Source: Paracoccaceae bacterium
Lineage (GTDB): Bacteria > Pseudomonadota > Alphaproteobacteria > Rhodobacterales > Rhodobacteraceae
Length of the DNA: 64,000 nt
NCBI GenBank assembly: GCA_965214695.1
Contig: CBDCCF010000001.1
Location: 18,838 to 82,837 of the forward strand
Direction: 5' to 3'
In this document: in pieces, positions 16,127 to 52,951 of the stretch
How the letters are laid out: each line of letters opens with the position of its first letter
Position numbering within the stretch: the stretch's first letter is position 1
Program-made: the position numbers and the translations under genes
The notes under the pieces: generated by a model
Told to the model about the DNA's origin: nothing
The model's database searches: none
What the model saw: the letters and a program-made list of their open reading frames with translations, nothing else

Positions 16127-16454
16127 GATCGACTCCTTGAAATAATGCAGGGCCTTCGCTCAGTCTGCGGGAAGGTCGGGATAGAAGTGTTGCGAAGTCG
16201 ACTTCGCAGATGATCGCTGCGCGGGTCTGCGGGAACGGGGCAGTTGGCTTCTTGCGTAGGGCAGCGTGGCATTTCAGGGAAAGCCGAGCATGATAACAAC
16301 AAGCGAGCCATGGGTTTCTCTTTTCGTGACAGGCTCTGCACAGAAGCCACTGTGTGCTCCTACATAATAGTAGGTAATGATTTGTGGTCGATCTGGCACA
16401 GGGCGGGTTGGTATGGGTTCTGCATACGTCCACACAATCTTTGTATATGACGGG

Positions 16455-36486: not shown

Positions 36487-36650
36487 GGGGCGGGAAGAAC
36501 TGCGTTTTGTCCGCGGCGGGACGCGGAGAACAGAAAAAGCGCTTGGGGTTCTTTTTGCGTGAATGGGCGGCTTTTGGCCTATTTGCTGCAATTTGTCAGA
36601 GAAAACAGTGATCGGACAGACGTCAACGAGCCCTGGTGTAAAGGCGCTCA
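36487..36650 (+). repeat. MITE/REP-like element family, copy 4 (divergent)
   Basis: TTTGTCCGCGGCGGGACGCGGAGAAC...ATCGGACAGACGTCAACGAGCCCTGG. Confidence 0.7.
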
Positions 36651-36963
36651 TAGCCGCTCTGCTCGCCTTTTTTGGGAGATTTGGGTTCCCAGACGTACAA
36701 ACCCCTGAACGCCCGGTCTGCCGCCTCCATGCTTTGCTGGGGCATTTGTCAATGCCGGGGTAGACGGTCAACAGGGCTATTGTTTTCCAAGGCCTGCGAA
36801 GGGCGCGCACGAGGGCGCCCCTAGCGGCGGTCATGGTCATTCCAGACAGTATGATCTTATGTGTATATATTACTATGTTAATAGATGCCGTGCCTGTATG
36901 ATTGACACTGGCTGGCTGTGACGAGCAGCGGACAGGACCGCGCTTTGCGGCAGGCTGCGGGAT

Positions 36964-37322
36964 TTGCGGGCGATCGGGAGACAGCAGCAGCTGCGGGCCA
37001 ACTTCGAGGCCTACCTGGACGGGTTCTCGCCGAATGTACAGGAGATCCTGGAGAAGTTCAGGTTCCGCAACGAGGTCCGCGGCTGGTGGAGGGCGGCATC
37101 GAGGGCTTTCTATGGCGGGAGGTGCTGCCATATGCGGCGGACGCGTGGTATGTGCCGGGCAGCGTGAAGGTGGGGTACGAGATCAGCTTCACGCTCTATG
37201 TTTGCAGGCCGCAGCCGCTGCGGGTGCCGGAAGAGATCTGGGCCGATATACGGGCGCTGGAGCAGGAGGCGGAGGGGCTGTTGGCGGAGATCCGGGGCGG
37301 CATGAATTGCGTTCGCAATTGA
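36964..37322 (+). pseudogene. hsdM: type I R-M methyltransferase (hsdM) remnant: an N-terminal-region fragment fused out of frame to the C-terminal tail
   Basis: Frame A: LRANFEAYLDGFSPNVQEILEKFRFRNEV. Frame B: FLWREVLPYAADAWYVPGSVKVGYEISFTLYVCRPQPLRVPEEIWADIRALEQEAEGLLAEI, the typical HsdM C-terminus. The catalytic core is absent. Confidence 0.6.
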
Positions 37323-37409
37323 GAACTTGCGCTATACTGTACAGAGTTATCGACATGAGAGGTTCTGGTTTTTGGTGACACATACCATAGCAGATGTTCG
37401 GATATAGAC

Positions 37410-37814
37410 GTGCCGATACCATTTGAACTTACAATTGATCGAGCGCCTGTATCTCAACAGGCTCGTAGAAGGCGGCGTGTAAGGAACTGGACTCAGGAGG
37501 TGCGAAGCGTCGCTGAAAGAGAATGGAAAGATGAAGCGCCCGTTTCCGAAGAACTCATGGTGACGATCACTTATTTCTACGACAGCACGCCCATGGATGT
37601 TGACAACATCCCCAAACCAATACTGGACGCATTGAAGGATCTGATCTTCTTTGATGACGCTCAGATAACGGATTTGCTTTGCCGAAAGAGGGTTCTGAGG
37701 CCCAGTTTTCAGACCCAGAATCTATCACCTGTCTTGCACCGGGCTCTCGGCCTGTCCAGACAGTTTGTTCATATCTTCGTGGAGGATGCGCCGGACCAGG
37801 AGGTGGTATCTTGA
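37410..37814 (+). CDS. RusA-like Holliday-junction resolvase family protein
   Basis: GTG start. Contains the RusA-type motif DVDNIPKPILDALKDLIFFDDAQI. Confidence 0.65.
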   Translation: MPIPFELTIDRAPVSQQARRRRRVRNWTQEVRSVAEREWKDEAPVSEELMVTITYFYDSTPMDVDNIPKPILDALKDLIFFDDAQITDLLCRKRVLRPSFQTQNLSPVLHRALGLSRQFVHIFVEDAPDQEVVS

Positions 37815-38470
37815 TTGAAGACATTGAAATTCTGGAAAAGATATTTATCGCTAAGACAGCGGCCAAGTACCGCAGCCGGGGCTATGAAGTGGAGGAAGAC
37901 TGCCCGTTGGAGTTCCTGCCTGGCTTTCGCTCCGATCTTGTTGCGCGCAAAGATGGCGATGTGAGGGTGATCGAAGTAAAGACCAGGACGTCTCTGGCGT
38001 TGACGAAGAAGTTGAATGAACTGGCCGAAATTTTGTATAGCAAGCCCGGTTGGAGCTATGACCTGCTTCTGGTGGGCGAACCGGAGAAACTGGAGTCGCC
38101 CGAGGGCGCGCAGCCGTTTGCGGAGGCGGAGATCCGGAAACGGCTTACCGAGGCGGAGGCCGTTCTTGAGAAGGGTTCGGGTGAGGCTGCCTATTTGCTG
38201 GTCTGGTCGGCTTGCGAGGCCGCTATTCGCAATTTGATCGGGACCGAAGGGATTGCCATCGCGCGCGTCACGACGGCGTCATACGTCCTCGATATGGCGG
38301 TCATGCACGGCATCATTTCGCGCGAGGACTACGACTATCTGACCGACATGATGAAGTATCGAAACGCCATTGCCCACGGCTTTGATGTCAACGGGTTCAG
38401 CGACGAGAAGGTGACGGAGTTGATCGAGGTCGTTGTGCGGCTGCTGGATTCGGAGCCTGAACTGGTGTAG
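37811..38470 (+). CDS. PD-(D/E)xK nuclease-like N-domain fused to a HEPN-like C-domain
   Basis: The putative TTG start overlaps the RusA-like stop (TTGA). N-domain: FRSDLVARKDGDVRVIEVKTR (D...ExK). C-domain: MKYRNAIAHGF (Rx4H). The start codon is uncertain. Confidence 0.55.
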   Translation: MIEDIEILEKIFIAKTAAKYRSRGYEVEEDCPLEFLPGFRSDLVARKDGDVRVIEVKTRTSLALTKKLNELAEILYSKPGWSYDLLLVGEPEKLESPEGAQPFAEAEIRKRLTEAEAVLEKGSGEAAYLLVWSACEAAIRNLIGTEGIAIARVTTASYVLDMAVMHGIISREDYDYLTDMMKYRNAIAHGFDVNGFSDEKVTELIEVVVRLLDSEPELV

Positions 38471-38504
38471 CGGAAGCGGAAGGATGTCGGCATCGCGGGC
38501 GCTT

Positions 38505-38645
38505 CGTTCGCTTGGCCCGCCGCGAAGTGACGCGGAGAAAACCAAGGACGTATCGGATTTCTTGTGCACAGCTGCGCAACCGTTCGCGGATCAGTGGCAC
38601 TTTTCCCTGCAAATCGCTGTTCAGACAGACGGCAACGGGCCCTAG
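38505..38645 (+). repeat. MITE/REP-like element family, copy 5
   Basis: CGCGAAGTGACGCGGAGAAAACCAAGGACGTATCGGATTTCTTGTGCACAGCTGCGCAACCGTTCGCGGATCAG...CAGACAGACGGCAACGGGCCC. Confidence 0.8.
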
Positions 38646-38960
38646 AAACACTTGATGCGACAATGGCCTTTGGCGGAGGCGGACGTGTCTCTGGCACGAC
38701 GGCTCCATGAGCGGCATCCTGTTCTGCAGGCTCGCGGCCCGTGTCATTTGGCGAGTTGGCTGCGGCGGGGCGTGCGAGAGATCAAGATCTTTGATCAGAT
38801 GCTCGCTGAAGTGAGCAGTTTCTTGTCGTCCTCGTGATGTGGTACTTTTCCCCGGAAATTAGAGATTCGGCTCCGAACGTCGATAGCGCATTCCACTATT
38901 TGAGTGACCCTGATAACGGTCGATTATCAAGCTGTGCGGGGAGATCGTCGGCGGAACCCA

Positions 38961-40823
38961 CTTTCAGTGCTCTCTCTGTAGAGCCGTATGGTGGTTCGTC
39001 GATGCGGGAACCGACGCGTCCCAATCAACGTCCTTTCAGTGCTCTCTCTGTAGAGCCGTATGGTGGTTCCTTTGATTTCACGGCCACGGACGTATCGGAG
39101 CCGGTCTTTCAGTGCTCTCTCTGTAGAGCCGTATGGTGGTTCCTGGAGAGGGAACGGCAGCAAAAGGCATTGATATTTCTTTCAGTGCTCTCTCTGTAGA
39201 GCCGTATGGTGGTTCGCCCCTGACCGCGTGCCAGTCGGCGTCCGGCACCTGCCTTTCAGTGCTCTCTCTGTAGAGCCGTATGGTGGTTCTTGTCGGCGAG
39301 GCGGGCCCGGAAGCCGTCATACCGCTCTTTCAGTGCTCTCTCTGTAGAGCCGTATGGTGGTTCTTTGCGGCGGATTGAAACTCAGATACGAGTTATGTCT
39401 TCTTTCAGTGCTCTCTCTGTAGAGCCGTATGGTGGTTCGGCGTATCGTGATTTTGCTGCGTCTGATTTGTCGGCCTTTCAGTGCTCTCTCTGTAGAGCCG
39501 TATGGTGGTTCAATACTCGCTCGATCCCCAGACGAGAAAGTTTGTCCTTTCAGTGCTCTCTCTGTAGAGCCGTATGGTGGTTCGCCTGCGCCCGCGACGT
39601 ACTGCTTAGAATCAGGCCTTTCAGTGCTCTCTCTGTAGAGCCGTATGGTGGTTCGATGGTTGGCTATGGCGGCGGCTGCCGTTTCGGGCTCTTTCAGTGC
39701 TCTCTCTGTAGAGCCGTATGGTGGTTCCGCCTTCCAACCTGGCTTAGAGTATCTGCCCATTATCCTTTCAGTGCTCTCTCTGTAGAGCCGTATGGTGGTT
39801 CTTTGCATAGAAAAAGCCCCCGGATATGTGATCCGACTTTCAGTGCTCTCTCTGTAGAGCCGTATGGTGGTTCTAGCAGTCGATGGCGGGCTGGTCGTCG
39901 GTGAAGATCTTTCAGTGCTCTCTCTGTAGAGCCGTATGGTGGTTCGCCTGCGCCCGCGACGTACTGCTTAGAATCAGGCCTTTCAGTGCTCTCTCTGTAG
40001 AGCCGTATGGTGGTTCGATGGTTGGCTATGGCGGCGGCTGCCGTTTCGGGCTCTTTCAGTGCTCTCTCTGTAGAGCCGTATGGTGGTTCCGCCTTCCAAC
40101 CTGGCTTAGAGTATCTGCCCATTATCCTTTCAGTGCTCTCTCTGTAGAGCCGTATGGTGGTTCTTTGCATAGAAAAGTGGCCGTAAGTCATCCAGATCTT
40201 TCAGTGCTCCCTCTGTAGAGCCGTATGGTGGTTCAGCCCAACCGTCTCCGATGTACCTTCTCATTTGAACCTTTCAGTGCTCCCTCTGTAGAGCCGTATG
40301 GTGGTTCCTTAGCTGTTCCAGCTTCGACTACCATAAGATAGGGACTTTCAGTGCTCCCTCTGTAGAGCCGTATGGTGGTTCGGCGCCCACAAAGTCAACT
40401 GGAAAGGCTCACTCGCACTTTCAGTGCTCCCTCTGTAGAGCCGTATGGTGGTTCTCGAGTAGGATGATTCCCTCGGGGCCGAAGCTGATGAGCTTTCAGT
40501 GCTCCCTCTGTAGAGCCGTATGGTGGTTCCTCCCGCACCTATAACTACACAATCACGGATTCGCACTTTCAGTGCTCCCTCTGTAGAGCCGTATGGTGGT
40601 TCGAATGGCACGGCCTACGCCGCGACCGAGGCGGTAAACTTTCAGTGCTCCCTCTGTAGAGCCGTATGGTGGTTCGATGAAATCGGCCAGGTTGAAGCGG
40701 TAGATCGTGTTGACTTTCAGTGCTCTCTCTGTAGAGCCGTATGGTGGTTCAGCTGCTCGGCATAGTCGATGTGCTCCTCTGCGGTGCTTTCAGTGCTCTC
40801 TCTGTAGAGCCGTATGGTGGTTC
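38961..40823 (-). CRISPR. CRISPR array: 26 repeats of 37 nt, 25 spacers of 34-38 nt
   Basis: Plus-strand repeat CTTTCAGTGCTCTCTCTGTAGAGCCGTATGGTGGTTC, first at 38961 and last at 40787. The minus-strand reading GAACCACCATACGGCTCTACAGAGAGAGCACTGAAAG has a 5-bp stem (GCUCU/AGAGC) and an 8-nt ACUGAAAG tail. This fits transcription from the cas4 side. Confidence 0.97.
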
Positions 40824-41111
40824 CGCCGGTGTTTTAGTCGTATTTTATGCCATAAATGACCTGCAGGCCTTTTTTGAGGCTTCTCAGGGCCGCCTGCGGC
40901 CTCTGTTTTGCTGGAATCAGGCAATCCGGCAGCTGTTGGAGCGACAGTTTTCGCAATATGGGAATTGCGGAAAAAGTCTACCGGTTTGCGAGGGCTGTTT
41001 TCTGTCATTTTTCTCTGGTCACGCAGCTGTTGCACGGTGAGGTCGCCGCGGAGACGACAGACGCAGCGCAAGATTTGAAACAGTTTGCGAAACAGCATGG
41101 CTATATCATGA
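40824..41111 (-). promoter_or_regulatory. putative CRISPR leader
   Basis: 288-bp noncoding gap between the cas4 stop and the first repeat. It is AT-enriched next to the array (TTTTAGTCGTATTTTATGCCATAAATGA). Confidence 0.55.
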
Positions 41112-41756
41112 CTATAGCATGTCATTGCAGAAGCGGCGGAACTCGCAGTCTACACAGCGGCTGCGCTGTCTGGCTGGAACCGGCGGCATCCGTTCGGCGA
41201 GGACCAAGGTGCGGATTTCGGCCAACTGGCGACGGACATCGTTGCGCAGGCGGGTGGTGACGGGTACGCGGACGGCTTTGCGCGCCGGGGTCAGATACAG
41301 GAAACCATGTTCCACCGGCAGCTGCCATACCTCTTCCAGCAATAGCGCATAGCAGGCTAGCTGCAGCTTGAAGTGGCGTCCAGGCTCCCGCCGGCTCAGC
41401 TTGTAGTCGACCGGGATCAGCCGGTCCTCGCCGTTGACCGTATGTCTGATCACCAGGTCTATCTGTCCGCTTACGCCCAGTTGTCCAGAGGCTAGCGAGA
41501 CATTGAAGTGACGCTCGCCCTCTGTCAGCCCATAGGCGCGTAGCGAACGCCTCCGCTCCAGCTCTTCAGCGCGGTCCTGGGCGCGGATGCCGGCATCCAT
41601 TTTGTAGGTGGTGGGCCGCACCTCCGGCAAACAGTAGTGGTAGTAAGGGATGCGGGGGCAGTAGGCGAACTGTTTGAGGTCGGTTACTTTGAGCAGCCAC
41701 GCGGTATGTTCCGACACTTGCGCGTCCGTGGGCGCAGGAATCTCCGGCATGGTCAA
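41112..41756 (-). CDS. cas4: Cas4 (RecB-like nuclease with a 4-Cys cluster)
   Basis: N-terminal FAYCPR, RecB motif IDLV...VDYKLS, and C-terminal CVDCEFRRFC. Confidence 0.9.
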   Translation of the reverse strand: MTMPEIPAPTDAQVSEHTAWLLKVTDLKQFAYCPRIPYYHYCLPEVRPTTYKMDAGIRAQDRAEELERRRSLRAYGLTEGERHFNVSLASGQLGVSGQIDLVIRHTVNGEDRLIPVDYKLSRREPGRHFKLQLACYALLLEEVWQLPVEHGFLYLTPARKAVRVPVTTRLRNDVRRQLAEIRTLVLAERMPPVPARQRSRCVDCEFRRFCNDML

Positions 41757-42013
41757 TCCTCCTCCATGCCCTGCTCGATGACCAGGCGTTTGCGCCAGTC
41801 CTCCTTGCAGAGGGGGAAGAGGTGCACGCGGGCGGCGGCTTTGCCGATTTTCTGTTCGATCTTCAGCATCAGCTCCTCCTGATGGTTGGCGCCCAGGCGG
41901 CCGAGGAAGGCGCTGTACTGCAGGCGGTCGAGGCCGTAGTCAAGACAGAAGTCGGCGACCTTGGTGCGCACGCGGTCGTCAGGAATGTCATAGAGCAAGA
42001 GGCAACGGATCAT
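41753..42013 (-). CDS. cas2: Cas2
   Basis: 86 aa with LLLYDIPDDRVRTKVADFCLDYGLDRLQYSAFLG. Overlaps the cas4 start by 4 nt. Confidence 0.9.
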   Translation of the reverse strand: MIRCLLLYDIPDDRVRTKVADFCLDYGLDRLQYSAFLGRLGANHQEELMLKIEQKIGKAAARVHLFPLCKEDWRKRLVIEQGMEED

Positions 42014-42035
42014 ATTGCTTTTTCCTAAAGGCCGA

Positions 42036-43088
42036 TTACCAGCTCGAGACGAATGGGCTGTACGCGTCCCGCTCGCCGCGCAGGTAGGCGGCCAGATGGC
42101 GGGCCTGCATCTGCACGATGTTGCGCAGGGGATGGCGCTTGTCCTCGTACCGTTCCTGGGCTTCGAGGCGGGTGAGGACTTTATCGGCCAGAGATCTGCG
42201 GGCCTTTTCGGTGAGGCGGCCGCGGCCGTCCAGTTCGACGGCGGCGCCGCGGTTGAAGAGGGCCAGGACCGTGCGGTCCACGATGGTCTGGCGAAACTCC
42301 TCTACCATGTCGTAGACCAGGGCCGACTTGCCGGGGCGATCGGTATGCAGGAAACCGGCGTAGGGGTCCAGCCCGGCAAGCACGAGGGCCCGTTCAACCT
42401 GGCTGTAGAGGATCCCGTAGCCGTAGTTGAGGGCGCTGTTAAGCGGGTCGCTGGCGCCCTGCGTGCGCCGGCCGGGCCAGTTGACATCGGCCAGGAGGAG
42501 TTTGCCGATGGCCTGCCAGTATTTCTGTGAACCGCGGCCTTCGATGGAGAGGATCTGTCCGCGCACGTCATCGACGGTATAGCTTCTGACAGGGTTTTGG
42601 ATAGATTCGGCGCGCAGCCGGTCCAGTTCGGCGACGTGGTCGAGCACGTCGCCGGCGAGCAGGCGCACTTTCTTGTACAGGTCCGGCTGTTTGGCCTTGC
42701 GGTATTTGGCCATGTATTTGAGCAGGTTGATCTGGTTGCTCAGCTTGCCTTCGGCCACGGCCAGGGCAATGTGCAGACCGCGGCTGTCCTGGCGGGCCTC
42801 GAGCTGGGCCCGGCGGGTTTGCACGGTTGCAGCCAGGCCGGCGCTGTAGAGGCTGCCGACCGGTTTGCCGCGGCGGCTGAGGAAGTGGATAGGCACACCT
42901 TCTTCGGCGCAGGCGGCCACGACGTCGCTGCTGAGGCTTACGCCGCGTCCGGTGATGAGGACGGTTTCGAGGTGCATCAGGGGCGCGTCGCCCCGTTTTT
43001 CGCCCTGGCAGGTGACGCGCAGGCGCCCGCTTTTTTTGGCGACAAAGCTGCCGAACTCGTCTACGATCAGGTGTTGAACGATGGGCAT
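42036..43088 (-). CDS. cas1: Cas1 integrase
   Basis: 350 aa from MPIVQHLIVDEFGSFV. Typical Cas1 blocks: NSALNYGYGILYS, GLDPYAGFLH, LVYDMVEEFR. Confidence 0.92.
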   Translation of the reverse strand: MPIVQHLIVDEFGSFVAKKSGRLRVTCQGEKRGDAPLMHLETVLITGRGVSLSSDVVAACAEEGVPIHFLSRRGKPVGSLYSAGLAATVQTRRAQLEARQDSRGLHIALAVAEGKLSNQINLLKYMAKYRKAKQPDLYKKVRLLAGDVLDHVAELDRLRAESIQNPVRSYTVDDVRGQILSIEGRGSQKYWQAIGKLLLADVNWPGRRTQGASDPLNSALNYGYGILYSQVERALVLAGLDPYAGFLHTDRPGKSALVYDMVEEFRQTIVDRTVLALFNRGAAVELDGRGRLTEKARRSLADKVLTRLEAQERYEDKRHPLRNIVQMQARHLAAYLRGERDAYSPFVSSW

Positions 43089-43100
43089 GGCATCTCCTGG

Positions 43101-43135
43101 GAGTGGATAGTGGGTAGTGAATAGTGGATAGTTGA
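43101..43135. repeat. five tandem heptamers TAGTGRR between cas6 and cas1
   Basis: GAGTGGA TAGTGGG TAGTGAA TAGTGGA TAGTTGA. Confidence 0.75.
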
Positions 43136-43143
43136 CAGAGCAG

Positions 43144-44190
43144 TTATGAACCACTGTAGTTGAATTCGATATGGCCGCAGCCCTTGACGGTATTTTTTCC
43201 TATTTGCACCTGGGCTGCCCAGAGCAGCCAGGGCAGCAGCGGCCGCCAGTCCGGGGCGGCGTAGGTGGCGCGGCCGATGAAGCCGCCCAGTCTTTGCGCT
43301 TGCCGCAGACGGCCGGAGTAGCCGCTGACGTCCCACCAGCGGGTCTCGTCGTTGACCAGCGCGACGGCGTCGGCATGGGGGAAGAGATCGCGTTTGAGCT
43401 GCAACGCTTGTCCGGTCGGGTCGTTGCCTTGCGGCCTGGTGGTCGGTCTGCCGCCGCCGAACTGTGCGCTCAGGTCCAGGATGCGCATGGCGGCGTTTTT
43501 GATGAGCTGGAAGGGTTCGGGCGTGCTGATTTTGCCCTGGCGTTTGATCAGGCGTGTGGGGGTGGTGAAGTTGATCGTCAGCCGGTTGTCGCGGGTTTCG
43601 AGGCGGTCTGCCAGTTGGGCAGCGGCGTCAGCAATGTGTACGTTGTCCACGGGCGCGGTGACGGCCTGCACCATGCGTTCGCCCGGTTTCATGAGGATGG
43701 CGGTAGCGTTTGTCAGCGGGTTGGTGGAAGTGATCGATTCGATGGTGAAGCGGCCGCGGCGGCCGCGTTCGTCCTTGCGGCCGATGCCGCCGGTCCCCAT
43801 GCCCTCTGCGCCGAGGGCCAGGTAGGGCAGGTAATTTAGATGGTCTCCGAAGAGGGTGACGGTAAAGGCGAACGGTTCGCCGGCTGCGTAGCGGGCCCGG
43901 TTGTCGAGGGGTGGGCGGATGGCATAGGGCCGGCGCAGGTCGCCGCCGGCATCCTCATCCTGCGGCATGGACAGCAGCTGGCAGACGGGACAGACTGACG
44001 CGTGCAGTATGCCGTCCTCGTGGTTGTGGGAAGGGTCGCGTCGTTCCGGGCAGAAGGTACGGCGCAGGACGCCGGCGAATGCGCCGCGTACAGCGCTGCC
44101 TTTGAATGGATGCCAGAGGACCGGCTCCTGGGCGCGGCAGTGGAAGGTGAGATGGTGGACGGTGAGGGGGATGTGTGGATGAGAGGTCAT
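43144..44190 (-). CDS. cas6: Cas6-like RAMP endoribonuclease (long form with a Cys-containing insertion)
   Basis: Start MTSHPHIPLTVHHLTFHC. Ferredoxin-like N-terminus with GSAVRGAFAGVL, a CPVCQ insertion, and a C-terminal G-rich loop IGKNTVKGCGHIEF. The position after cas5 also fits. Confidence 0.72.
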   Translation of the reverse strand: MTSHPHIPLTVHHLTFHCRAQEPVLWHPFKGSAVRGAFAGVLRRTFCPERRDPSHNHEDGILHASVCPVCQLLSMPQDEDAGGDLRRPYAIRPPLDNRARYAAGEPFAFTVTLFGDHLNYLPYLALGAEGMGTGGIGRKDERGRRGRFTIESITSTNPLTNATAILMKPGERMVQAVTAPVDNVHIADAAAQLADRLETRDNRLTINFTTPTRLIKRQGKISTPEPFQLIKNAAMRILDLSAQFGGGRPTTRPQGNDPTGQALQLKRDLFPHADAVALVNDETRWWDVSGYSGRLRQAQRLGGFIGRATYAAPDWRPLLPWLLWAAQVQIGKNTVKGCGHIEFNYSGS

Positions 44191-44215
44191 GCGGCGTTCT
44201 TTTCTTTCCGCCTGT

Positions 44216-44950
44216 TCACTGCCTGGTTTGGTCGAACCGCTCATATAGCGTGTAGCCTCTGCTGCTGCGCGCCATGCGGTAGGGGAGGATGACGGGGCGC
44301 AGGATGCGGTGTGTGCCGAGGCGCATAGTTTTACTTGAGTAGATATTGACTTCATCGAAACTGAGGTTTCTTCCGCAGTCGTCCATGACCTGCAACGTGC
44401 CGTCCAGTGGGAAGCTCTCGCTATGCTGTTCATCCTCACCTAAAAGAAGAAAATTCGGAGGCAGTTTCTCACTCTTTTCGAACTGTCCCGTAGCCTGGAC
44501 GAAACCTCCCCGCTTGCCCAGGTAGTGGATATTGGTCGTCCACAGCGCCCAGTCTTCATCTGCCTCATTGGAGGGCTCAAAGGCGATCCGTGTTTCTCCA
44601 TGCCACTGTACATACTCGCGGAAACCGATTGACCGACCCATGATTTGTAAGACACCAGTATCTGGATCGGGCAATACTTGGCCACGGCTTGGTTTCAGGA
44701 TTTTCGTGAACGTATTGTTCACTGCGATCTGATCCGGGCCGTGAATTGCGATCTTGCCATCACGGATGGCAGGCCATAGCCTCGTCCCCGCATCGATCCC
44801 TTCCAGCTGGATCACCGTGTTCAGGAGAGCCATTTTGAAGGAAAATGGCGTAGGAAGCAGAAGGGACTTGCCGCCGGTGGAGGTGGCGGCAGCCGCCTTC
44901 AGTGAGAACATTGTGACCGGCTCATAGGTAGTGATCCACCACATAGGCAC
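44216..44950 (-). CDS. cas5: Cas5-like RAMP subunit
   Basis: 244 aa placed between cas7 and cas6. N-terminal beta-strand plus LLLPTPFSFKMALLN, and a glycine-rich YLGKRGGFVQ. Confidence 0.68.
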   Translation of the reverse strand: MPMWWITTYEPVTMFSLKAAAATSTGGKSLLLPTPFSFKMALLNTVIQLEGIDAGTRLWPAIRDGKIAIHGPDQIAVNNTFTKILKPSRGQVLPDPDTGVLQIMGRSIGFREYVQWHGETRIAFEPSNEADEDWALWTTNIHYLGKRGGFVQATGQFEKSEKLPPNFLLLGEDEQHSESFPLDGTLQVMDDCGRNLSFDEVNIYSSKTMRLGTHRILRPVILPYRMARSSRGYTLYERFDQTRQ

Positions 44951-44952
44951 TC

Positions 44953-45918
44953 CTATCGAGCGAACTCATGTGGCTGGCATTCGGTCAAGAGTTCTTGCAT
45001 CACGTCAGCCAGACTTGAGAGAGACCCAAATTCCTCAACATGCACGCGTCCCTCGTGGATGCGGTTGAGAGAGGCGGAGATATCCTTGGTTTGGTCTATG
45101 AAATTCGGGTTTAGGGGGCTTACCATAGGGGCAGGGGCGGCGCCCGTACTGTAGGTAAGCGTGCCAGTCACGTCGACAATATGGGGATTTTGCGTATTGC
45201 GCATCGCCCCGCTTGGCTGCACAAACGAGTAGAGTAGGCTTTCCAGCAACGCCGCAAGCCGGGCCTGTCGCTCATCGCCGTCCAGCACAACTTTCTGGCT
45301 GATATCGTTGTAGCCGATGCGATGCGCTTCAATATTACAGACGATAGCGTACTGGCCGCTGTTGGCGGGGCGGTGAAAGATGGCCTGCCCCAGATTGGCA
45401 GAGCGTTCATCTTTCTCCGTAGGAATCTCGCGACGATCCGGATCATATTTGACGTGGAAGAATTGATCGGTGGTGACCAGTTCGGGGATGCCTACCGCCC
45501 AGCCAAACTCTACTACACTCTTGCGGGGTACAGAGAGGTTGCCGGCGGTAATCAGATTGCCTTCGATGTCGTCTAGTGTGCAACTAAGCAATCTGTCTAC
45601 GACTTGCACCGGCGTGGGTTTCTCCTTCTTTACCCATTCCTCGAATTCTGGATCTCCCGACATGCGGTTGGCGTCGAAGCGTTGACAGGCGGCGCACAGC
45701 GGCAATCCCCGCTCCTTACTGATACGGTAGAGATGTTCGGCCTGGATATGTTTGAGCATGTCGCCGCTAATGGCGTTGACACTCTCTAGCCGCCCATCGT
45801 GGGACACGATATTGACGATACGGGTCTGGGTCTGATTGCCCTCACCGCCCTCATTATTGAGAGAATGCAGATTCAAAGTGGCTTTGGCGGCGATCGACAG
45901 GTTAAAGATGGTTGTCAT
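44953..45918 (-). CDS. cas7: Cas7 backbone subunit (Csa2/Cst2/DevR/Csc2-like flavour)
   Basis: Motifs LNLHSLNNEGGEGN and AISGDMLKHIQAEH are characteristic of this Cas7 clade. Confidence 0.85.
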   Translation of the reverse strand: MTTIFNLSIAAKATLNLHSLNNEGGEGNQTQTRIVNIVSHDGRLESVNAISGDMLKHIQAEHLYRISKERGLPLCAACQRFDANRMSGDPEFEEWVKKEKPTPVQVVDRLLSCTLDDIEGNLITAGNLSVPRKSVVEFGWAVGIPELVTTDQFFHVKYDPDRREIPTEKDERSANLGQAIFHRPANSGQYAIVCNIEAHRIGYNDISQKVVLDGDERQARLAALLESLLYSFVQPSGAMRNTQNPHIVDVTGTLTYSTGAAPAPMVSPLNPNFIDQTKDISASLNRIHEGRVHVEEFGSLSSLADVMQELLTECQPHEFAR

Positions 45919-45989
45919 GAGGTGTACTCCGTTGACAGTGTTAGGAATTGCCGGTGCAACTTGGAAAGGGTCGAGTATACATCGTGGAC

Positions 45990-47759
45990 TTAAGGTTCCT
46001 GCGTTACAGATTCGTCTGTTTCGCCAGCCTGCTCTGCTCCTTCCTCCGTCTGCTCCCTTGGGTCGCGAGCATAGCCGAAGGCGACCAATAGGTTGCAGAC
46101 GGTTTTCGATCCGTGTTTATCGACCAACTTCACCACGCTCTCGATGTCCTGAGTGGTGATGAGTTTGCGCCGGGCTGCGCCCTTTGTACGTTCGTATACG
46201 CGCATGCTCTCGTCGTTGTAACTTTGCATAAACTCGGAGAGTATTTGGATGAAGTCATCCTCGTATTGGGCTTTACGCATCAAATCCTGTCCCAGACCGT
46301 AGCGGATATCAAATCGGCTTGTGCTTCGTCCTAAATAGAGAGGCACAAGCGTACTCATGCGGATGGCGTAGGCGATGTTACGGAAACCCTCATCCTCAAG
46401 TAAGGGTGCAAGTGCGGGGTTTGTCATTTTAAACAACCTCCTCAAGTATTTCTCGCTGAATGGTTTGACATAGAACCGGCTGCGGTCCAGAGCGCTCGTC
46501 AGGTAGCTGCTGTAACCCGCCAGAAACTCATAAAATGGAGCGAGGTAGTTGCCGGACAGAAAATCACGGTAAAGTTGGAGAAGGGCATAGCCTTCGCTGC
46601 GGTCCTCATCTATGTTGCGGATACGTTCTCTGTGTTCCTGCAGAATCGCCACATACTGGCGTGCGTCCTCAGACGTACGAATGCCCGGCATCCAGTCGGG
46701 CAGGCCCAGAAACGCCAGATTCATCATCGTGTAGGAGTTCGCGCTCAGGAGCTGGTAGGTGGCAACACCCATGCCGTTGACTACGTTGGAGATTCCACCA
46801 TCTCCAAAGATGTCCGGCTCGTCATCTTCGATGCTTTGTTCCAGCAGCGCCTCAGCATAGAGGAGAGAGGCCATGATATCCTGCTTCACCACACCCTCGT
46901 TCCAGAGACGGTCTCGGAAGCGCCGAAAAATCTGCTGATGTCGGGTTATCTCGATCTCATGGGGTGCAAGGATGTAGGTCTTACGCACGCCGGCGTTTAT
47001 CGTAGGCACAGCCGCTTCCCACAGGCCCACGGCCTTCAAAAACTCCAGCAGCCAGAATACATTCTCATTGCCCATTGTCAGCTTGTTGGCCTTGGCGCGG
47101 TTCTGACCTTTGCCCATGTGAGGGTTGAACAGTTGGGAGGCCGTAACCATGTGGCTAAAGCCACCCTTCCCAACTTCCTTCTTCCACCCTTCGGCTATCG
47201 CGTCCCAATCGGCCATGGGTGAAGAAAACAGTTCAAAAACCGTCCGCAGATTGAGGCCGGGAAACTGCGCGTTGGTACGCATCCACTGCTCGGACAGCTT
47301 GTTATGGATTGCCTGAGCCTGCATTCTGTAATCGCCTAAATAGGTGACGACTGTCCAATCAGGTGCTGGTTTGCTGTCTTCCAATGCCTGTTCGATCTCG
47401 TCGTTAGCCAGCTTTTCATTCCGCAGTTGCTTTCTAAGCGCCTGGTACCGGTTGAACTCTTCCCACGTTTCGTCCACGCTGCGGAAAGCGGGCACTGGGG
47501 CCAAATTATCCGGTATTTTGTTCTTTGCACTTACGACAAACCAAATCATTTGCCGTTCCCAACCGTCTGCCAGCCATTCTTCCCGCACCGGCGCGCCCGA
47601 ATCAATGAGAAAATAGCTCCCTCCATCTTTCAGGGTTACTTCCTCCTCTTGCAGATGGGGCTGCATATATTGGTGAAACAGAGTTGCCGCTCCGAACGCG
47701 AGCAGCGTATCGGTGAGCGTGCCAGTGGTTTTCGGCACATAGTAGAATTGCTGATACAT
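45990..47759 (-). CDS. Cas8-like large subunit (family unresolved)
   Basis: 589-aa ORF in the large-subunit position between cas3 and cas7. No HD or cyclase motif seen by eye. Confidence 0.62.
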   Translation of the reverse strand: MYQQFYYVPKTTGTLTDTLLAFGAATLFHQYMQPHLQEEEVTLKDGGSYFLIDSGAPVREEWLADGWERQMIWFVVSAKNKIPDNLAPVPAFRSVDETWEEFNRYQALRKQLRNEKLANDEIEQALEDSKPAPDWTVVTYLGDYRMQAQAIHNKLSEQWMRTNAQFPGLNLRTVFELFSSPMADWDAIAEGWKKEVGKGGFSHMVTASQLFNPHMGKGQNRAKANKLTMGNENVFWLLEFLKAVGLWEAAVPTINAGVRKTYILAPHEIEITRHQQIFRRFRDRLWNEGVVKQDIMASLLYAEALLEQSIEDDEPDIFGDGGISNVVNGMGVATYQLLSANSYTMMNLAFLGLPDWMPGIRTSEDARQYVAILQEHRERIRNIDEDRSEGYALLQLYRDFLSGNYLAPFYEFLAGYSSYLTSALDRSRFYVKPFSEKYLRRLFKMTNPALAPLLEDEGFRNIAYAIRMSTLVPLYLGRSTSRFDIRYGLGQDLMRKAQYEDDFIQILSEFMQSYNDESMRVYERTKGAARRKLITTQDIESVVKLVDKHGSKTVCNLLVAFGYARDPREQTEEGAEQAGETDESVTQEP

Positions 47760-48070
47760 CAGGCCTCCTCGACGGGATCAAAAAGATCAAGTTGTACATG
47801 CTGCGACTCGCCCATATACTGTCCAGATTGAAACTGAACACTATTTACACCGAAAAGCACCCGACATAATTCGTAAAGAGACTTCAAGTCACAGATTGGC
47901 AGTTCCCACATACCGATCTGTTTATGCCATTGCATGTGTGGGAATCGTTCTCTGAAGAACCGAAGATATCGAAAGAAGAGCACTTGGGATGAAACGTTGT
48001 CAAGGCGAAAATAGACATGGCGGGATGAAACAGCTAAAGTTATCTGTGGAATTTTGACTATTGTATTCAT
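47759..48070 (-). CDS. 103-aa hypothetical protein translationally coupled to the large-subunit gene
   Basis: GGAG RBS 6-10 nt upstream of the ATG at 48070. Its stop TGA overlaps the cas8-like ATG (ATGA at 47757-47761). The sequence is AT-richer than its neighbours. Confidence 0.55.
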   Translation of the reverse strand: MNTIVKIPQITLAVSSRHVYFRLDNVSSQVLFFRYLRFFRERFPHMQWHKQIGMWELPICDLKSLYELCRVLFGVNSVQFQSGQYMGESQHVQLDLFDPVEEA

Positions 48071-48274
48071 TCTCTCTCCATACGTCCTGCTTAAGTATAG
48101 TATACGCATATACTAGGGTATGTAAAGAGGCTATCACAGCGCGCCAGATATGCCAAAATGGGAAGAACTTCGATTTAAAACGCACACTTTTCTACGACTC
48201 CCAAGTGAGTACTGAAAGTAGAATATGCGAATACACCCCGACAACGATCCGAAAGAGTGGATACTTCGTCGGGA

Positions 48275-50731
48275 TCACTCCCTCTCCTGAGACAACCCGT
48301 CGCACAGACGCAGAATCCTCACCACATACAGATATAACAGCAGCGATCTGAAATGTCCCGGCTTGATCAGGGATCTGTGCAGCCTGCTGCCTCGGCCAGA
48401 ACTCTTCAACAGCGGCTGCTCTGGCGTCGGCAACTGCGCAGCTCGCAACCCCTGTACCAGAGCTTTACTTGCTTCCGGATGCAGGTCATATTCGGCGTAA
48501 CTCACTGTGCCGGTACTGTGATGGCGAGCGATGGCCGTCAGAACGGCTTGGACCAGAGATTTCTGTTGTCGCCCGATGTGATTTGCTACGATCTGCGCGA
48601 CGGCAACAGCGCTTTCTCCGGCGTGATTCGGGCGCGTTTCCTGTCTGTCAGTGCCTTTCCTGGCCTCTTGATGGGTCTTATTGCCGGGATCGGAGTCGGT
48701 ATGGACTGCCATATAGCTGAGATCGCAGATGGGTGCGCCAATCTTCTCCTGGTAGAGGCGCACCCAGCGTTGCCAGCGTCGATCCAGCTTGCCCAGATCA
48801 TGGCAGGCAATCGCGAGCCGGATCGCCTGGTCGAGCCCATCGACAGGCAGATTCCACAACTCAGTCAGTTTCCGCTGTATATAACTGTAATCATCCTTGA
48901 ACCGATGCTCGTATACGTTCACCACCCGCTCAATGTGCTCGCTGTAGCTTTCCAACTGGTAGCTGTACCCACCGAATCTGTTGCCCCGAAAATCCTCCCC
49001 TTGTTTCGAAACATAGCCGGTGTGTTCACCGGGTGCCTGAATGCGGAACCCCAGTTCTTCATCGTAGGCGCAAAAGGTGCTGTTAATGACAACAACCTTT
49101 GTGCTACTGATCATGCTGGAATCAAGAATGGGATGCCAAGCGTATCGTTCTTCTTGCGTGGCGTCTTCAATATCGGTCTGGCTGGACGACGGAAACTGCA
49201 TGGTCCAAGGTCGATCCTCAAATTCCCCGAGTTCAAGCCTATCAGCCATCTCCTCCAGATTGCGCCAGATAGCGTATACACTGCCCCGGAACAGACTGAA
49301 TCCTTGGGCGGAGAAGGGATTGCCGAGTTTCTCGGGGCAGTTTGCTGCCAGCACAGTGATGCTATCGATGCTGCGAATCAGGTTTCGCCGGTGGCTGGGG
49401 TCGTGCGCCTCCATTGCGTTGTAGATGTCTCGCCAGATAAGGCTCTGCTGTAGGTCCATAGCAGTTAGCAGGTCGCGGTCAGTGTCGGTGTGGACCTCAT
49501 CAATGATTGCCTGTTCGTCCTCGAAATCGAGCTTCTGGTCGGCTCTTCTGCAAAGCCTCTGCCAGGAGGTAGTGCAAAGAGCAGAAGGATAGGGCAGATA
49601 GTCGAGATTCTCCTCTCCCCGAGAATCCCGTGTCGGTACTTGATAAATGTGAACGTGCCCTACTTCGCCGGGGTACCGGGCGCAGCGGCCGGCCCGTTGG
49701 AAGATGGCATTGGCCGGCGCTATCTCGGTGTGCAGACGGTCGCAGGTGATGTCCAGCCCTACTTCCACAACCTGAGTCGCCACAAGAATCAGACTGTTAA
49801 TCGTTCGGTCCTGGGCCTCTTTTCCAAATTCGCGCCGGATCTCTTTCTCTTTCTGACTTCGATGTTCAGGGGTGAAACGGCTGTGGAGCAGGCGGATATC
49901 CGTACCCTTGCGCTTGGCATGATCACGAAGCTCCTCATAGAGCTTCTGCGCACGCCCTACCTGATTGCAGACGACGATGGAGCGGGTCACATCGCCCGTC
50001 CCATGGGCATCCAGGACAGCGTCGGCGCTAACGTTCTCTTCAGTAATATGGTAGTAGCGACGGCGCGCCTGCTTGCCCTCACCCGAGGCAATCTTCAGGT
50101 ACTCCTCTTTGTCAACCGTTACCACTTCAGCGCCGAGCCGTTGTGCCAATTCACCTAACATTGTGTTGGAGAATGTCGCTGTCATGAGTACGAAAGGGAT
50201 GAGCCCCCGCAATTCGGCTAGCAGCTGCAGTGTCGTTACCAGGGCGCCGGATGCATTGCCCCCATCACCGGTCGGAAAGAGGTGAAACTCGTCAAAAATG
50301 AGATAGGATGAAAAAAAGGCGCCCGCGTTCAGATTGGCCCTTCTGGCCGAGAGGGAATAGGGCACAGCCAGCGCGCTGCTGAGACTCTGATCGACAGTAG
50401 CAAAGATCAGATTGCCCAGCAGCTGGGGATCATCGGGGTGCTCGCCGGTCTGGATCTTGACGCGCAACCCCTGCTCAGGACGAAAGCGACGATCATAGCT
50501 TTCCGCAAGTCTGAGATACTCTTCATTGAATTGATTCGCCAGCACGCGCATTGGCACAGAGTAGATACATTTTCGCGGAAGCTGGTCCGGCTCGTCTGAA
50601 AAATACGATTCGATGTAAGGCGCAAGCGCGGCCCGTGTCTTGCCGGCTCCGGTTGGTGCCTGCAAGACGACTGATTTGCCTTGCTGAACGAACGATCTCA
50701 CACGTTGCTGGTAAGGGTACAGAGAAATCAT
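48275..50731 (-). CDS. cas3: Cas3 helicase with a C-terminal HD nuclease domain
   Basis: N-terminal SF2 motifs (QAPTGAGKT, LIFDEFH, QRAGRCAR). HD-type motifs only near the C-terminus (YSEHIE, IACHDLGKLD, HAGES, IARHHS). Confidence 0.9.
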   Translation of the reverse strand: MISLYPYQQRVRSFVQQGKSVVLQAPTGAGKTRAALAPYIESYFSDEPDQLPRKCIYSVPMRVLANQFNEEYLRLAESYDRRFRPEQGLRVKIQTGEHPDDPQLLGNLIFATVDQSLSSALAVPYSLSARRANLNAGAFFSSYLIFDEFHLFPTGDGGNASGALVTTLQLLAELRGLIPFVLMTATFSNTMLGELAQRLGAEVVTVDKEEYLKIASGEGKQARRRYYHITEENVSADAVLDAHGTGDVTRSIVVCNQVGRAQKLYEELRDHAKRKGTDIRLLHSRFTPEHRSQKEKEIRREFGKEAQDRTINSLILVATQVVEVGLDITCDRLHTEIAPANAIFQRAGRCARYPGEVGHVHIYQVPTRDSRGEENLDYLPYPSALCTTSWQRLCRRADQKLDFEDEQAIIDEVHTDTDRDLLTAMDLQQSLIWRDIYNAMEAHDPSHRRNLIRSIDSITVLAANCPEKLGNPFSAQGFSLFRGSVYAIWRNLEEMADRLELGEFEDRPWTMQFPSSSQTDIEDATQEERYAWHPILDSSMISSTKVVVINSTFCAYDEELGFRIQAPGEHTGYVSKQGEDFRGNRFGGYSYQLESYSEHIERVVNVYEHRFKDDYSYIQRKLTELWNLPVDGLDQAIRLAIACHDLGKLDRRWQRWVRLYQEKIGAPICDLSYMAVHTDSDPGNKTHQEARKGTDRQETRPNHAGESAVAVAQIVANHIGRQQKSLVQAVLTAIARHHSTGTVSYAEYDLHPEASKALVQGLRAAQLPTPEQPLLKSSGRGSRLHRSLIKPGHFRSLLLYLYVVRILRLCDGLSQERE

Positions 50732-51771
50732 GGTCCTCCGAAAAAGTCATCAATTGTGGTCTGGTGGGGTTCCGGTGATGTAGAAACATGCCACTCATAC
50801 TGCTCCGCCATCGCCTTCGCTTCCCCCATCAACGTCTCTCGCAACTCAACCGGCTCCAGCACCTCGCAGTCCGCGCCCCAACCGCGAATCCAGGGTAGCA
50901 TCTCCTTGGGTTCGGCGATTTCAGCCTGCCATAGGAGATAGCCGTCCGTTTGCAGCTCCGTTTCCTCTCCTCGCTGCCACGTGCTTTCCTGTACTCTCTG
51001 GGCGACTCGGGGATGAAAGCGCAGAACGACCTCCTGCGGCTCGGCCTCCGTGTACCAGATGCCCCAGGCGTGGCGTAGCAGTTCTGCCGGATCGAATGTG
51101 GCGGGTAACTCATATTCCTCACGCAGGATTTCAGCCGAGCGCAGTCTTTCGACCTTGAAGGTGCGGACCTTGCCGGGCGGTTCGCGCAAACCAAGCACGT
51201 GCGCGGTCTGGCCGACTGCATAGGGTTCGATGAAGTAGGGAGAGAATGTGTAGTCGAAAACGCGTCCATCTCCCATCTGGTGGGACACCCTTACCTTACG
51301 GCCGCTGGCCCAGGCTTTGGTCAGGGTTTCCAGCACTTCGAGGTAGACGGGGTCCCGATAGGAAGCGTCCTCGTCCATCACATCCGCAGACCGCAGCAGG
51401 TGACGGCTGACGTTTTCGTCCAGCCGCTGCAGCGCCATTCCCAGTTTGCGCAGCGCTGAGGCCGCATGGGGATTCTGTTTGTCCGTACGCGTAGCAAGCA
51501 GACGGGTAGCGAGATGGATGGCCATAACCTCGTGCAGGTTAAACGAGGCCTTTGTAAGTTCGGCGGCCCGATCGATTTTCAGTTTGTTGCCGTCCAAGTG
51601 GTCTTCATAGATGCTGGGCGGCAGGTCGTTCTGATCGAAATATTTGGTGATTACCGAGCGGTTAACGCTGATGCGGCGCGCGATTTCGGTGCGCGACAAT
51701 CCTTCAGGATGACTCCAAAGCAGTTTTTCGATCTGGTGGATACGGGCGGCCTTGCCTTCGGCTCGTTTCAT
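50728..51771 (-). CDS. HTH-WYL-domain transcriptional regulator
   Basis: N-terminal wHTH (LSRTEIARRISVNRSVITKYF). WYL-like core (VRVSHQMGDGRVFDYTFSPYFIEPYAVGQTAHVLGL). Its stop overlaps the cas3 ATG by 4 nt. Confidence 0.85.
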   Translation of the reverse strand: MKRAEGKAARIHQIEKLLWSHPEGLSRTEIARRISVNRSVITKYFDQNDLPPSIYEDHLDGNKLKIDRAAELTKASFNLHEVMAIHLATRLLATRTDKQNPHAASALRKLGMALQRLDENVSRHLLRSADVMDEDASYRDPVYLEVLETLTKAWASGRKVRVSHQMGDGRVFDYTFSPYFIEPYAVGQTAHVLGLREPPGKVRTFKVERLRSAEILREEYELPATFDPAELLRHAWGIWYTEAEPQEVVLRFHPRVAQRVQESTWQRGEETELQTDGYLLWQAEIAEPKEMLPWIRGWGADCEVLEPVELRETLMGEAKAMAEQYEWHVSTSPEPHQTTIDDFFGGP

Positions 51772-52089
51772 CGCATCACCTTCTGACAGTCTTGTTGTCG
51801 TTTATCGGCTATAGCACAGAGTGTATCTGGATATGTGCATTGTCAAGTCCTGCAGGCTCTCTGTTGGCATCGCTCTGACAGCCGATGATCACAGTTTAGG
51901 TGACAGTTGTTTCCAGTACGGCAACAAAAAGCAGGAAAGTTTTCCAAATTCAGTCGAAGAGTGCGTGCAAAGTTCTCCAAGCGCCTTTCCTGTCAACAAG
52001 TTTCCGCACTTTCATTGGAATTGTGGTTCAGGTCTAGGGGCCAAGCATAGTTGGGAGTAGAAACAGGAAGTGAGAATAAACGAGTAGGA

Positions 52090-52583
52090 TTACGGACCGC
52101 TGCCGGCGCCGGTTGAGGACGACTTGGCGAAGGGGATTTTGGCGGCGATCGACATGGACAGCTACCGGGTGGAGAAGCAGGCGTGCGGGCGATCCAGCTG
52201 GCGGACGAGGATGCTGAGATCGGGCCGGCGGCGGACACAGGCCGGAAGCGGAGATGGAGTGGTTGTCCCACATTCTGAGGGAGTTCAACGACCGTTTCGG
52301 CAATATCGCGTGGCAGCACCAGGACAAGATCGGGAAGATCATCACCGAGGAGCTGCCGGCGATGGTGGCCGAGGACAGGGCGTATCAGAATGCGAAGGTC
52401 AACTCCGACAGGCAGAACGCGCGCATCGAGCATGACAGGGCGCTGGAGCGGGCGATGACGGGGCTGCTCGCGGACCATACGGAGCTGTTCAAACAGTTCA
52501 GCGACAACGGGTCGTTCCGGCGCTGGTTGCTGGAGAGTTCGTTCAGGGCTACGTATGATCGGGTTGCGGGGGCGGGTGGCTGA
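52090..52583 (+). pseudogene. hsdR: type I restriction enzyme R subunit (hsdR) C-terminal remnant with at least 2 frameshifts
   Basis: Three frames carry consecutive HsdR C-terminal blocks. These are PVEDDLAKGILAAIDMDSYRVEKQA, then VRAIQLADEDAEIGPAADTG, then LSHILREFNDRFGNIAW...YQNAKVNSDRQNARIEHDRALERAMTGLLADHTELFKQFSDNGSFRRWL. There is no N-terminal helicase part. Confidence 0.6.
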
Positions 52584-52861
52584 CGGGGATGGCAATCGTG
52601 CAGGTGTGGCATGTATTCGCATATTGAGATATGTGCATATGGGTATTGCTGCGGACAGGGGTGCGGGCCCGACAGATTGCTTTCAGACACAGCCGGTTCA
52701 CTTCTTTGATTTTCACAGCTCTCAGACAGCTGATGACGAGGGGTTTGTGCTTTTATGGCGGCAGATCACCCGTTGACGATCAGAGCTAGCCGCATCCGTC
52801 CGGATTCCTCTTATTCTTCCCATTTTGTGATCCAAACATCAGGACCCACCATATTTGAAGG

Positions 52862-52951
52862 GATTGTGCGGTTATAGATCGCTATGACACGAACAAGCCC
52901 TACGTGTTTACGCTTGATCCGGGTCACACGGTGCGCTATATCAGCTGGTAG
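52862..52951 (+). pseudogene. decayed copy of a small ORF family (pairs with 53443-53709)
   Basis: The frame reads DCAVIDRYDTNKPYVFTLDPGHTVRYISW*. It has no start codon and a stop lies immediately upstream. Confidence 0.4.

Follow-up and report, generated by a model that had tools for sequence, protein, structure and literature searches.

A CRISPR-Cas locus between the decayed ends of a type I restriction-modification operon, a probable case of defence-island turnover

Background

PrrC in EcoprrI is an embedded defence gene of a type I restriction-modification (R-M) operon. Such embedding is also established for TgvAB in VPI-2 of Vibrio cholerae (PMC11411939), and embedded genes have been surveyed by "guilt-by-embedding" in a study where pseudogene systems were filtered out and all genes of a system were required to be on the same strand (Payne et al. 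2024, bioRxiv 10.1101/2024.01.29.577857). Replacement of the content of defence hotspots with anchor genes is equally established, for example in Escherichia coli's immigration control region (PMC12707154). Here we analyze a stretch of 64,000 nucleotides (the window, C2:18838-82837) from a Paracoccaceae bacterium assembly of 3.87 Mb that includes contigs C1 (the chromosome) and C2 (~112 kb). In the window a pair of nuclease genes and a whole CRISPR-Cas locus lie between remnants of hsdM and hsdR. Very probably there was one type I R-M operon here, the middle of which was replaced by the CRISPR-Cas module while its ends decayed.

Results and discussion

The remnants of hsdM and hsdR

The original prediction, made from the sequence alone, placed an HsdM remnant in the region 36964-37322 and an HsdR remnant at 52090-52583, both on the plus strand. 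Both identities were borne out by tblastn (E 3e-12 to 1.5e-50) using as references HsdM (674 aa), HsdS and HsdR (1006 aa) of the Meiothermus plasmid pMtWR-220. For the alignments we used also two relatives with the operon, G041 (a Caldilineaceae metagenome-assembled genome, MAG) and G046, and the locus L116 of a sister contig. The features are:

36609 to 36835, plus strand: conserved region upstream of hsdM, probably the 5' flank of the operon (83% DNA identity to positions 1678-1902 of the G041 operon)
36836 to 36927, plus strand: AT-rich segment at the place of hsdM codons 1 to ~66 (alignment to G041; 97% in L116)
36928 to 37322, plus strand: hsdM pseudogene (tblastn, alignments; junction found in L116 and four short-read assemblies)
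37082 to 37095, plus strand: junction of the large internal hsdM deletion (compared with both sides of the intact G041 and G046 genes)
52099 to 52583, plus strand: hsdR pseudogene (tblastn, alignment, 92% DNA identity to the intact hsdR of G041, gap-free independent contigs)

From an HsdM of 656-674 aa only the residues ~67-74, 88-135 and 604-672 plus the stop codon are left, with aa 89-135 matching 36955-37095 (E 3e-12) and aa 604-672 matching 37095-37301 (E 2e-21). Alignment to G041 reveals at least three deletions: the 5' end (~codons 1-66) is gone and 92 nt of AT-rich DNA stand in its place, 38 nt are missing between the first two pieces, and an internal deletion of ~1.35 kb has removed aa 136-603. 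This last one is bounded, in the alignment with G041 and G046, by the 11-nt imperfect direct repeats GCTGGTGGAGG / GCTGGAGGAGG. Thus, the prediction of an N-terminal fragment joined to the C-terminal tail and ending at 37322 was right, although the remnant starts further left, at ~36928, and the out-of-frame state of the fusion is private to this assembly. A deletion of 1 nt just upstream of the junction, after 37076, is found only in the window, whereas L116 and the short-read runs X1, X7, X11 and X17 have the extra base and an in-frame fusion, so that the frame break is either a private deletion or a long-read consensus error of the source assembly. Single bases are absent at 36687, 36738 and 37076 in comparison with short-read contigs of three or four other studies, and these may all be consensus errors of this kind. 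Upstream, the window matches at 83% (36609-36830) the DNA found directly before the intact hsdM of G041. The AT-rich segment contains a weak promoter-like site (CAGACA-17-TATATT, 36843-36871); in a promoter and terminator scan around the hsdM stub the matches were no commoner than in shuffled sequences.

The hsdR remnant had been described as the C-terminal ~160 aa with at least two frameshifts, and this is essentially what was found: the last ~164 codons (aa ~843-1006) and the stop codon, with aa 843-873 matching 52100-52192 and aa 889-1006 matching 52224-52577 (E 1.5e-50). Alignment to intact genes locates frameshifting deletions of 1 and 13 nt near 52183 and 52215. Both are also present in gap-free short-read contigs of other samples, and the frameshifts are real. 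Compared with all of the ~45 aligned hsdR genes the homology begins abruptly at 52099. The ratio of non-synonymous to synonymous substitutions (dN/dS) of the stubs against intact homologues was 0.04-0.43, like the baseline between intact genes, with too few sites to date the pseudogenisation. The 85 nt after the hsdR stop (52584-52668) recur at 86% identity in L120 (19198-19283), there beyond the CRISPR array, at the opposite end from the WYL gene.

The three fragments match, at 63-64% aa identity, genes annotated as type I subunit M or class I SAM-dependent DNA methyltransferase and as subunit R, and the M and R matches sit in the same plasmid loci, for example in Meiothermus pMtWR-220. When translated, 36900-37380 and 52000-52650 give HsdM-like and HsdR-like peptides in shifting frames. 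The homology search that had been proposed succeeded only with tblastn; the Pfam and NCBIfam profile searches left the hsd fragments unscored, without any N6_Mtase match, because the surviving pieces fall outside the domain models. The window was also said to lack hsdS and the helicase core of hsdR between the remnants, and no trace of either, or of the methylase core, turned up in the window or elsewhere in the assembly; searches that started from the closest intact homologues did not recover them either (tblastn with the HsdS of Meiothermus, G041 and G046 gave no match). Beyond these fragments tblastn detected no other hsd genes in the assembly. There is therefore no N6-adenine methyltransferase domain of HsdM, no HsdS, and no nuclease or superfamily 2 motor of HsdR, and with all of these gone the R-M system is dead. 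What remains are HsdM and HsdR fragments on the same strand, M before R, that match one intact operon.

Intact relatives of the operon

The last 118 residues of the hsdR stub were used as query against one genome per species, which gave 572 relatives with Caldilineaceae MAGs as top matches, and the loci of the best 80 were fetched. This sample is biased, having been gathered with the C-terminus of hsdR. G041 contains, on its own contig C1 (120 kb), an R-M locus of ~19.5 kb, all on one strand, in the order hsdM, GmrSD, an orphan hsdM tail, AHJR-HEPN and a paralogue, a 439-aa gene, an AAA_21 ATPase, hsdS, a Schlafen/AlbA gene, an HTH gene and hsdR. Its DNA identity to the window is 89% for the N-terminal hsdM fragment, 90% for the hsdM tail, 91% for AHJR-HEPN and 92% for the hsdR stub. 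Since this single locus matches every piece of the window at 89-92%, both remnants and AHJR-HEPN can be assigned to one operon type. The condition set for abandoning this idea, that the fragments were not HsdM and HsdR or belonged to unrelated loci, does not describe what was found.

G046 has a second such locus, 92-95% identical to the window from hsdM to AHJR-HEPN, followed by an intergenic element that matches 38860-38952 at 85% and ends ~8 nt before the first CRISPR repeat (38961). Operon-derived sequence is thus unbroken from 36609 to ~38953 and resumes at 52099. The cargo between hsdM, hsdS and hsdR in G041 and G046 includes GmrSD, AHJR-HEPN, the AAA_21 ATPase, Schlafen/AlbA, and IrrE/HTH with DUF4411. 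In G046 (L107, 1533-3493) an otherwise intact hsdM is split over two frames near aa 515, either by a real frameshift or by an assembly error.

The nuclease genes next to the hsdM remnant

Between the hsdM remnant and the CRISPR array there are four features:

37410 to 37814, plus strand: RusA-like gene, open reading frame (ORF) of 134 aa (PF05866, E 7.6e-12)
37811 to 38470, plus strand: gene of 219 aa with AHJR-like (PD-(D/E)xK) and HEPN-like parts (PF18743, E 8e-17)
38505 to 38645, plus strand: copy of a miniature inverted-repeat transposable element (MITE) or repetitive extragenic palindromic (REP)-like element (matches other copies in the window and Caldilineaceae loci)
38855 to 38953, plus strand: intergenic element that follows AHJR-HEPN in intact operons (85% to positions 4907-4999 of the G046 operon, 79% to the G043 locus), the final stretch of operon-derived DNA ahead of the CRISPR block

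The content announced for this interval, a RusA-like/PD-(D/E)xK-HEPN pair, a REP element, the array and a minus-strand cas operon, agrees with the profile matches. Both the RusA-like protein (46.4 bits, cut-off 22.8) and the AHJR-like domain (61.3 bits, cut-off 26.1) score above threshold, while the best HEPN family gives a weak match below it (23.1 bits, cut-off 28.4). PADLOC had no match for the pair, and an exact-protein look-up of the RusA ORF and of P0007 found none either. The RusA protein is 100% identical in L116 and a RusA-like gene follows an hsdM tail in G043. The AHJR-HEPN gene has 91-92% DNA identity to the genes located after hsdM in G041 and G046, and its dN/dS of 0.13-0.14 against both points to purifying selection, so this surviving nuclease cargo looks functional. 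In G046 it comes straight after hsdM and in G041 behind an inserted GmrSD gene. Since the gene follows hsdM in intact loci, it is resident embedded cargo that has survived, and the pair is not an incoming element. The homologues in G041 are embedded in the sense of Payne et al., and so are those in G046 save for the possible hsdM frameshift.

Contigs from sponge metatranscriptomes cover 37077-38094, one of them starting upstream of the hsdM junction, which suggests that the hsdM stub is now the 5' leader of the nuclease transcript. RNA contigs also span 51539-52279. Further copies of the MITE are found at ~28.7, 30.4, 32.1, 36.5 and 58.6 kb of the window and in Caldilineaceae loci; it is absent at the equivalent place in G046.

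The CRISPR-Cas block

The components of the block are:

38961 to 40823, minus strand: CRISPR array, 26 repeats of 37 nt and 25 spacers
41112 to 51771, minus strand: cas operon (NCBIfam, Pfam and PADLOC matches)
41112 to 41756, minus strand: cas4
41753 to 42013, minus strand: cas2
42036 to 43154, minus strand: cas1
43144 to 44439, minus strand: cas6
44216 to 44950, minus strand: cas5-like gene
44953 to 45918, minus strand: cas7
45990 to 47759, minus strand: cas8-like gene
between the cas8-like gene and cas3, minus strand: ORF of 116 aa
48275 to 50731, minus strand: cas3
50728 to 51771, minus strand: WYL regulator
51772 to 52098, no strand: region upstream of the WYL gene (homology with L114, L117, L119 and L120; IS66 site in L116)

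With cas1, cas2, cas3 and cas5-8 beside a repeat-spacer array this is a type I CRISPR-Cas system, of mixed subtype: the effector profiles are I-A-like (Cas8a/Cas5a/Csa2-like) but Cas3 is I-G-like. The leader of the array is presumed to be on the cas4 side. The repeat is found at high depth in sponge metatranscriptomes, in the same runs as the nuclease-gene contigs. Neither the genome nor the fetched loci, the L116 and L114 arrays among them, gave a credible match to any spacer, so there is no sign of hsd self-targeting. The array of the window and those of L116 and L114 have no spacer in common, though their flanks are 97-100% identical. An internal duplication occupies 39547-40382 with a period of 362 nt (5 units), and seven consecutive repeats (18-24, 40198-40675) have a T>C variant at repeat position 13.

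The block 38961-~52050 (13.1 kb) recurs at 80-89% identity without hsd genes in L114/L115, L117, L118, L119 and L120. In each of these contexts, at least five, it has the array as one terminus and the WYL gene plus upstream region as the other. This recurrence in hsd-free contexts indicates that the block moves as a unit. Homology upstream of the WYL gene ends at 51948 (L114), 52015 (L117), 51999 (L119) and 52043 (L120); the segment from 51772 to ~52043-52057 travels with the block, unlike the last ~45 nt before the hsdR stub. Within the cas operon, a patch at 45324-46823 (the 5' part of cas7 and the 3' part of cas8) is only 81% identical to L116 while the rest reaches 93-97%, and the adaptation module (41.5-44.5 kb) has a GC content of 62-65% versus 52-56% in the effector genes. 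Together they suggest a mosaic operon. The block itself is not embedded cargo in the strict sense: it lies on the opposite strand, is flanked by pseudogenes, and has no intact-operon example in the 80 loci.

A sister contig and the reality of the arrangement

ENA contig_6149 (114.5 kb, with loci L116 and L121) is collinear with 27548-56794 of the window and shares the hsdM stub, the junctions and the hsdR stub. Identity is 97-100% in the left block, 93-97% in most of cas and 81% in 45324-46823. The architecture being shared by this sister replicon, it is not very recent and is older than these lineages. L116 has in addition a later insertion, an IS66-family element (16058-17625 of the reverse complement, GTAA... 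terminal inverted repeats) that separates the hsdR stub from the region upstream of the WYL gene; its 8-bp target duplication, GTTGGAAG, is equivalent to 52050-52057.

The possibility that the contig is an artefact, a long-read chimera joining a CRISPR locus to R-M fragments, has to be considered given that the bin mixes a chromosome and a contig unlike in composition and taxonomy, and that the single-base deletions of the window do not appear in other assemblies. We give it next to no credence. The same junctions exist in the independent 114.5-kb contig and both are spanned by short-read contigs from four studies, one of them (13 kb) crossing 51600-52900 without gaps. A chimeric architecture is ruled out by these independent assemblies, and doubt is left only on single-base details.

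The host of the contig

C2 has a GC content of 57.4% versus 61.9% in C1, and its tetranucleotide correlation with C1 is 0.90, whereas every chunk of C1 reaches at least 0.967. There is no sequence in common between the two contigs, and the MITEs are on C2 only. The 16S of C1 is 95-97% identical to the genus of the bin and 74% identical to the Caldilineaceae genomes that hold the relatives of C2. Searches in the bin's own genus and family found neither synteny nor a Cas8 homologue, because the chromosome belongs to another phylum than the relatives of C2. The tblastx comparison of the G006 loci with C2 gave only low-scoring noise. C2 is probably a mis-binned Caldilineaceae contig or a foreign plasmid. 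Its ends (first 2 kb and last 1 kb) contain copies of a repeat, ~80% identical to each other, which would be in keeping with a circular molecule that was broken open within a repeat array during assembly.

Turnover of the site

To the right of the hsdR stub the variable site has a conserved neighbour:

54899 to 57313, minus strand: GAF-PAS histidine kinase/response-regulator fusion (Pfam; homologues beside intact hsdR or CRISPR-Cas)

In L026 and L028 an intact hsdR is followed by a homologue of this gene (57-58% aa identity), as the remnant is in the window. A comparison with related genomes for an intact hsdMSR at the same site had been suggested; it thus yielded intact hsdR next to the same kinase, while G041 and G046 were not syntenic. 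The right flank of L014 is 97% identical, its hsdR starts only at aa 886 with unrelated DNA to the left, and its genome does not have the CRISPR-Cas block at the site. Approximately 4 kb left of that stub (1762-5973, minus strand) there is a 1403-aa Eco57I-like/N6_Mtase protein, probably a type IIG enzyme. Across relatives the site is hence occupied by type I R-M, CRISPR-Cas or an Eco57I-like enzyme, and it keeps changing, as the IS66 at the junction in L116 and the other DNA left of the hsdR stub in L014 show. The view of the locus as a snapshot of defence-island turnover is supported by the states of the site in L014, L116 and L120. The accompanying claim, that the R-M locus was gutted and replaced by other defence cargo, holds for CRISPR-Cas; the nuclease pair, in contrast, was resident.

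Alternative origins and points against the replacement

That the remnants derive from two unrelated type I R-M loci brought together by a chance rearrangement seems to us very unlikely. In its favour, G046 is the slightly nearer relative for the hsdM pieces (92-95%) and G041 by far the nearer one for the hsdR stub (92% vs 78%), so that the two halves of the operon have partly different histories. Yet G041 alone matches all pieces in one locus, the remnants are on the same strand and in the right order, the three fragments all match genes in the same plasmid loci, and the assembly has no other hsd genes. The mosaic pattern of identity is explained by the swapping of hsdR alleles between otherwise similar operons that the comparison of G041 with G046 reveals (dS, the synonymous divergence, 0.67 vs 0.24). 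It is also improbable, though somewhat less so, that CRISPR-Cas is the older resident beside the kinase and that no complete R-M operon was ever here, the hsd fragments being later scars of cassettes, with the hsdM tail arriving with RusA/AHJR-HEPN and the hsdR tail with something since lost. In favour of this, orphan hsdM 3' tails precede cargo genes in G041, L022, L025, L033, L084 and L089, and the difference between the left block (97-100%) and cas (93-97%) in the comparison with L116 would fit a later arrival or gene conversion. L120, where CRISPR-Cas adjoins a kinase homologue with no hsd remnant, also speaks for it. However, this would take two insertions, independent of each other, that both landed in the right order and orientation; N-terminal hsdM and 220 nt of its upstream DNA persist in the window, both absent from cassette scars; the homology to intact operons runs past AHJR-HEPN into the next intergenic element, up to the array; and intact hsdR is found beside the kinase in L026 and L028.

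The replacement of the middle of one operon remains our preferred explanation, and several observations besides L120 weigh against it. The synteny of G041 and G046 with the window stops ~220 nt upstream of hsdM, and for this reason the identity of the site rests on the kinase neighbour in distant relatives (57-58% aa). The host of the contig is uncertain. Of the junction repeats, which had been proposed as something to look for, the 11-nt imperfect pair within hsdM was found; the ends of the CRISPR block show neither an integrase nor transposon ends nor long homology arms. In the 80 hsdR loci the block is never upstream, and this CRISPR-Cas never lies between intact hsd genes; as no intermediate of that kind was found, replacement in one step and insertion followed by deletions are indistinguishable. 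The RNA evidence rests on metatranscriptome contigs that were assembled from a strain differing slightly from this one, with possible carry-over of DNA, and is only suggestive.

A proposed history of the locus

The ancestral replicon would have had one type I R-M operon, belonging to a family that is frequent in Caldilineaceae and other Chloroflexota, located upstream of the kinase/regulator gene, with the order hsdM, (RusA)-AHJR-HEPN cargo, further cargo, hsdS, further cargo and hsdR. A 13.1-kb module (array, cas4-2-1-6-5-7-8, cas3 and WYL regulator), which circulates among these bacteria as one unit, then presumably replaced everything from ~0.5 kb downstream of AHJR-HEPN to codon 842 of hsdR, probably by recombination with imported DNA. 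In the decay of the rest, hsdM lost its 5' end, 38 nt and, as the alignment shows, ~1.35 kb between the 11-nt imperfect repeats, and the hsdR stub gained its two frameshifting deletions, which are likewise seen in the alignment. The nuclease genes stayed intact and are apparently cotranscribed with the hsdM stub as 5' leader.

Orphan hsdM 3' tails (aa ~600-672 or ~640-672) were seen in at least eight of the loci examined, downstream of an intact hsdM, before cargo genes and each ending at the natural stop. They include 6215-6308 and 9880-9993 in the G041 operon, L022 4233-4331, L025 3227-3322, L033 1259-1462 and 3029-3205, L084 1463-1672 and L089 2993-3178, and resemble scars left where recombination within hsdM exchanged cassettes. 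Short C-terminal hsdR stubs start at aa 886 in L014, 859 in L023, 875 in L049, 818 in L057, 861 in L059 and 771 in L060, near locus position 10000 except in L049 (near 3000-3380), where hsdM aa 1-172 is joined directly to hsdR aa 875-1000. Starts at aa 818-886 are found in 6 of the 11 truncated copies, a sample biased by the C-terminal query. It is a tentative and rather doubtful idea that the conserved 3' ends of hsdM and hsdR serve as portable homology arms, making type I R-M operons integrase-free landing pads. Recombination anchored there would swap defence cassettes, even ones as large as a whole CRISPR-Cas locus, and leave the hsdM tails and hsdR stubs as scars. Besides the bias of the sample, it counts against this idea that stepwise erosion by deletions would likewise produce stubs that are mostly short.

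Comparison with known systems

The locus is an unusually legible record of one defence system displacing another, with stubs, surviving cargo, intact relatives and later states all available. It shows that embedded cargo can outlive its scaffold and that CRISPR-Cas travels among sponge-associated Caldilineaceae as one complete block, and it points to a contig of the source assembly that is probably mis-binned or a foreign plasmid. Loci of this type escape surveys in which pseudogenised systems are discarded; that of Payne et al. excluded them by its filters for pseudogenes and opposite strands.

Among embedded type I R-M operons, G041 and G046 are textbook cases and the nuclease genes of the window are the same sort of cargo; here, in contrast, the scaffold is dead and an entire CRISPR-Cas locus, on the opposite strand, makes up the largest insert. 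This locus shares with type I CRISPR-Cas systems that have Cas8a/Cas5a/Csa2-like effectors, a Cas3 with C-terminal HD and a WYL gene the full cas1-8 set and the array. As in E. coli's immigration control region, the window has a variable defence locus with varied occupants by a conserved neighbour (the kinase), although in another phylum, on a ~112-kb contig of uncertain host, and with remnants of the previous occupant on both sides of the insert, so that the order of events can be read. It represents no new kind of system or mechanism but a clear multi-state example of the known turnover of defence islands.

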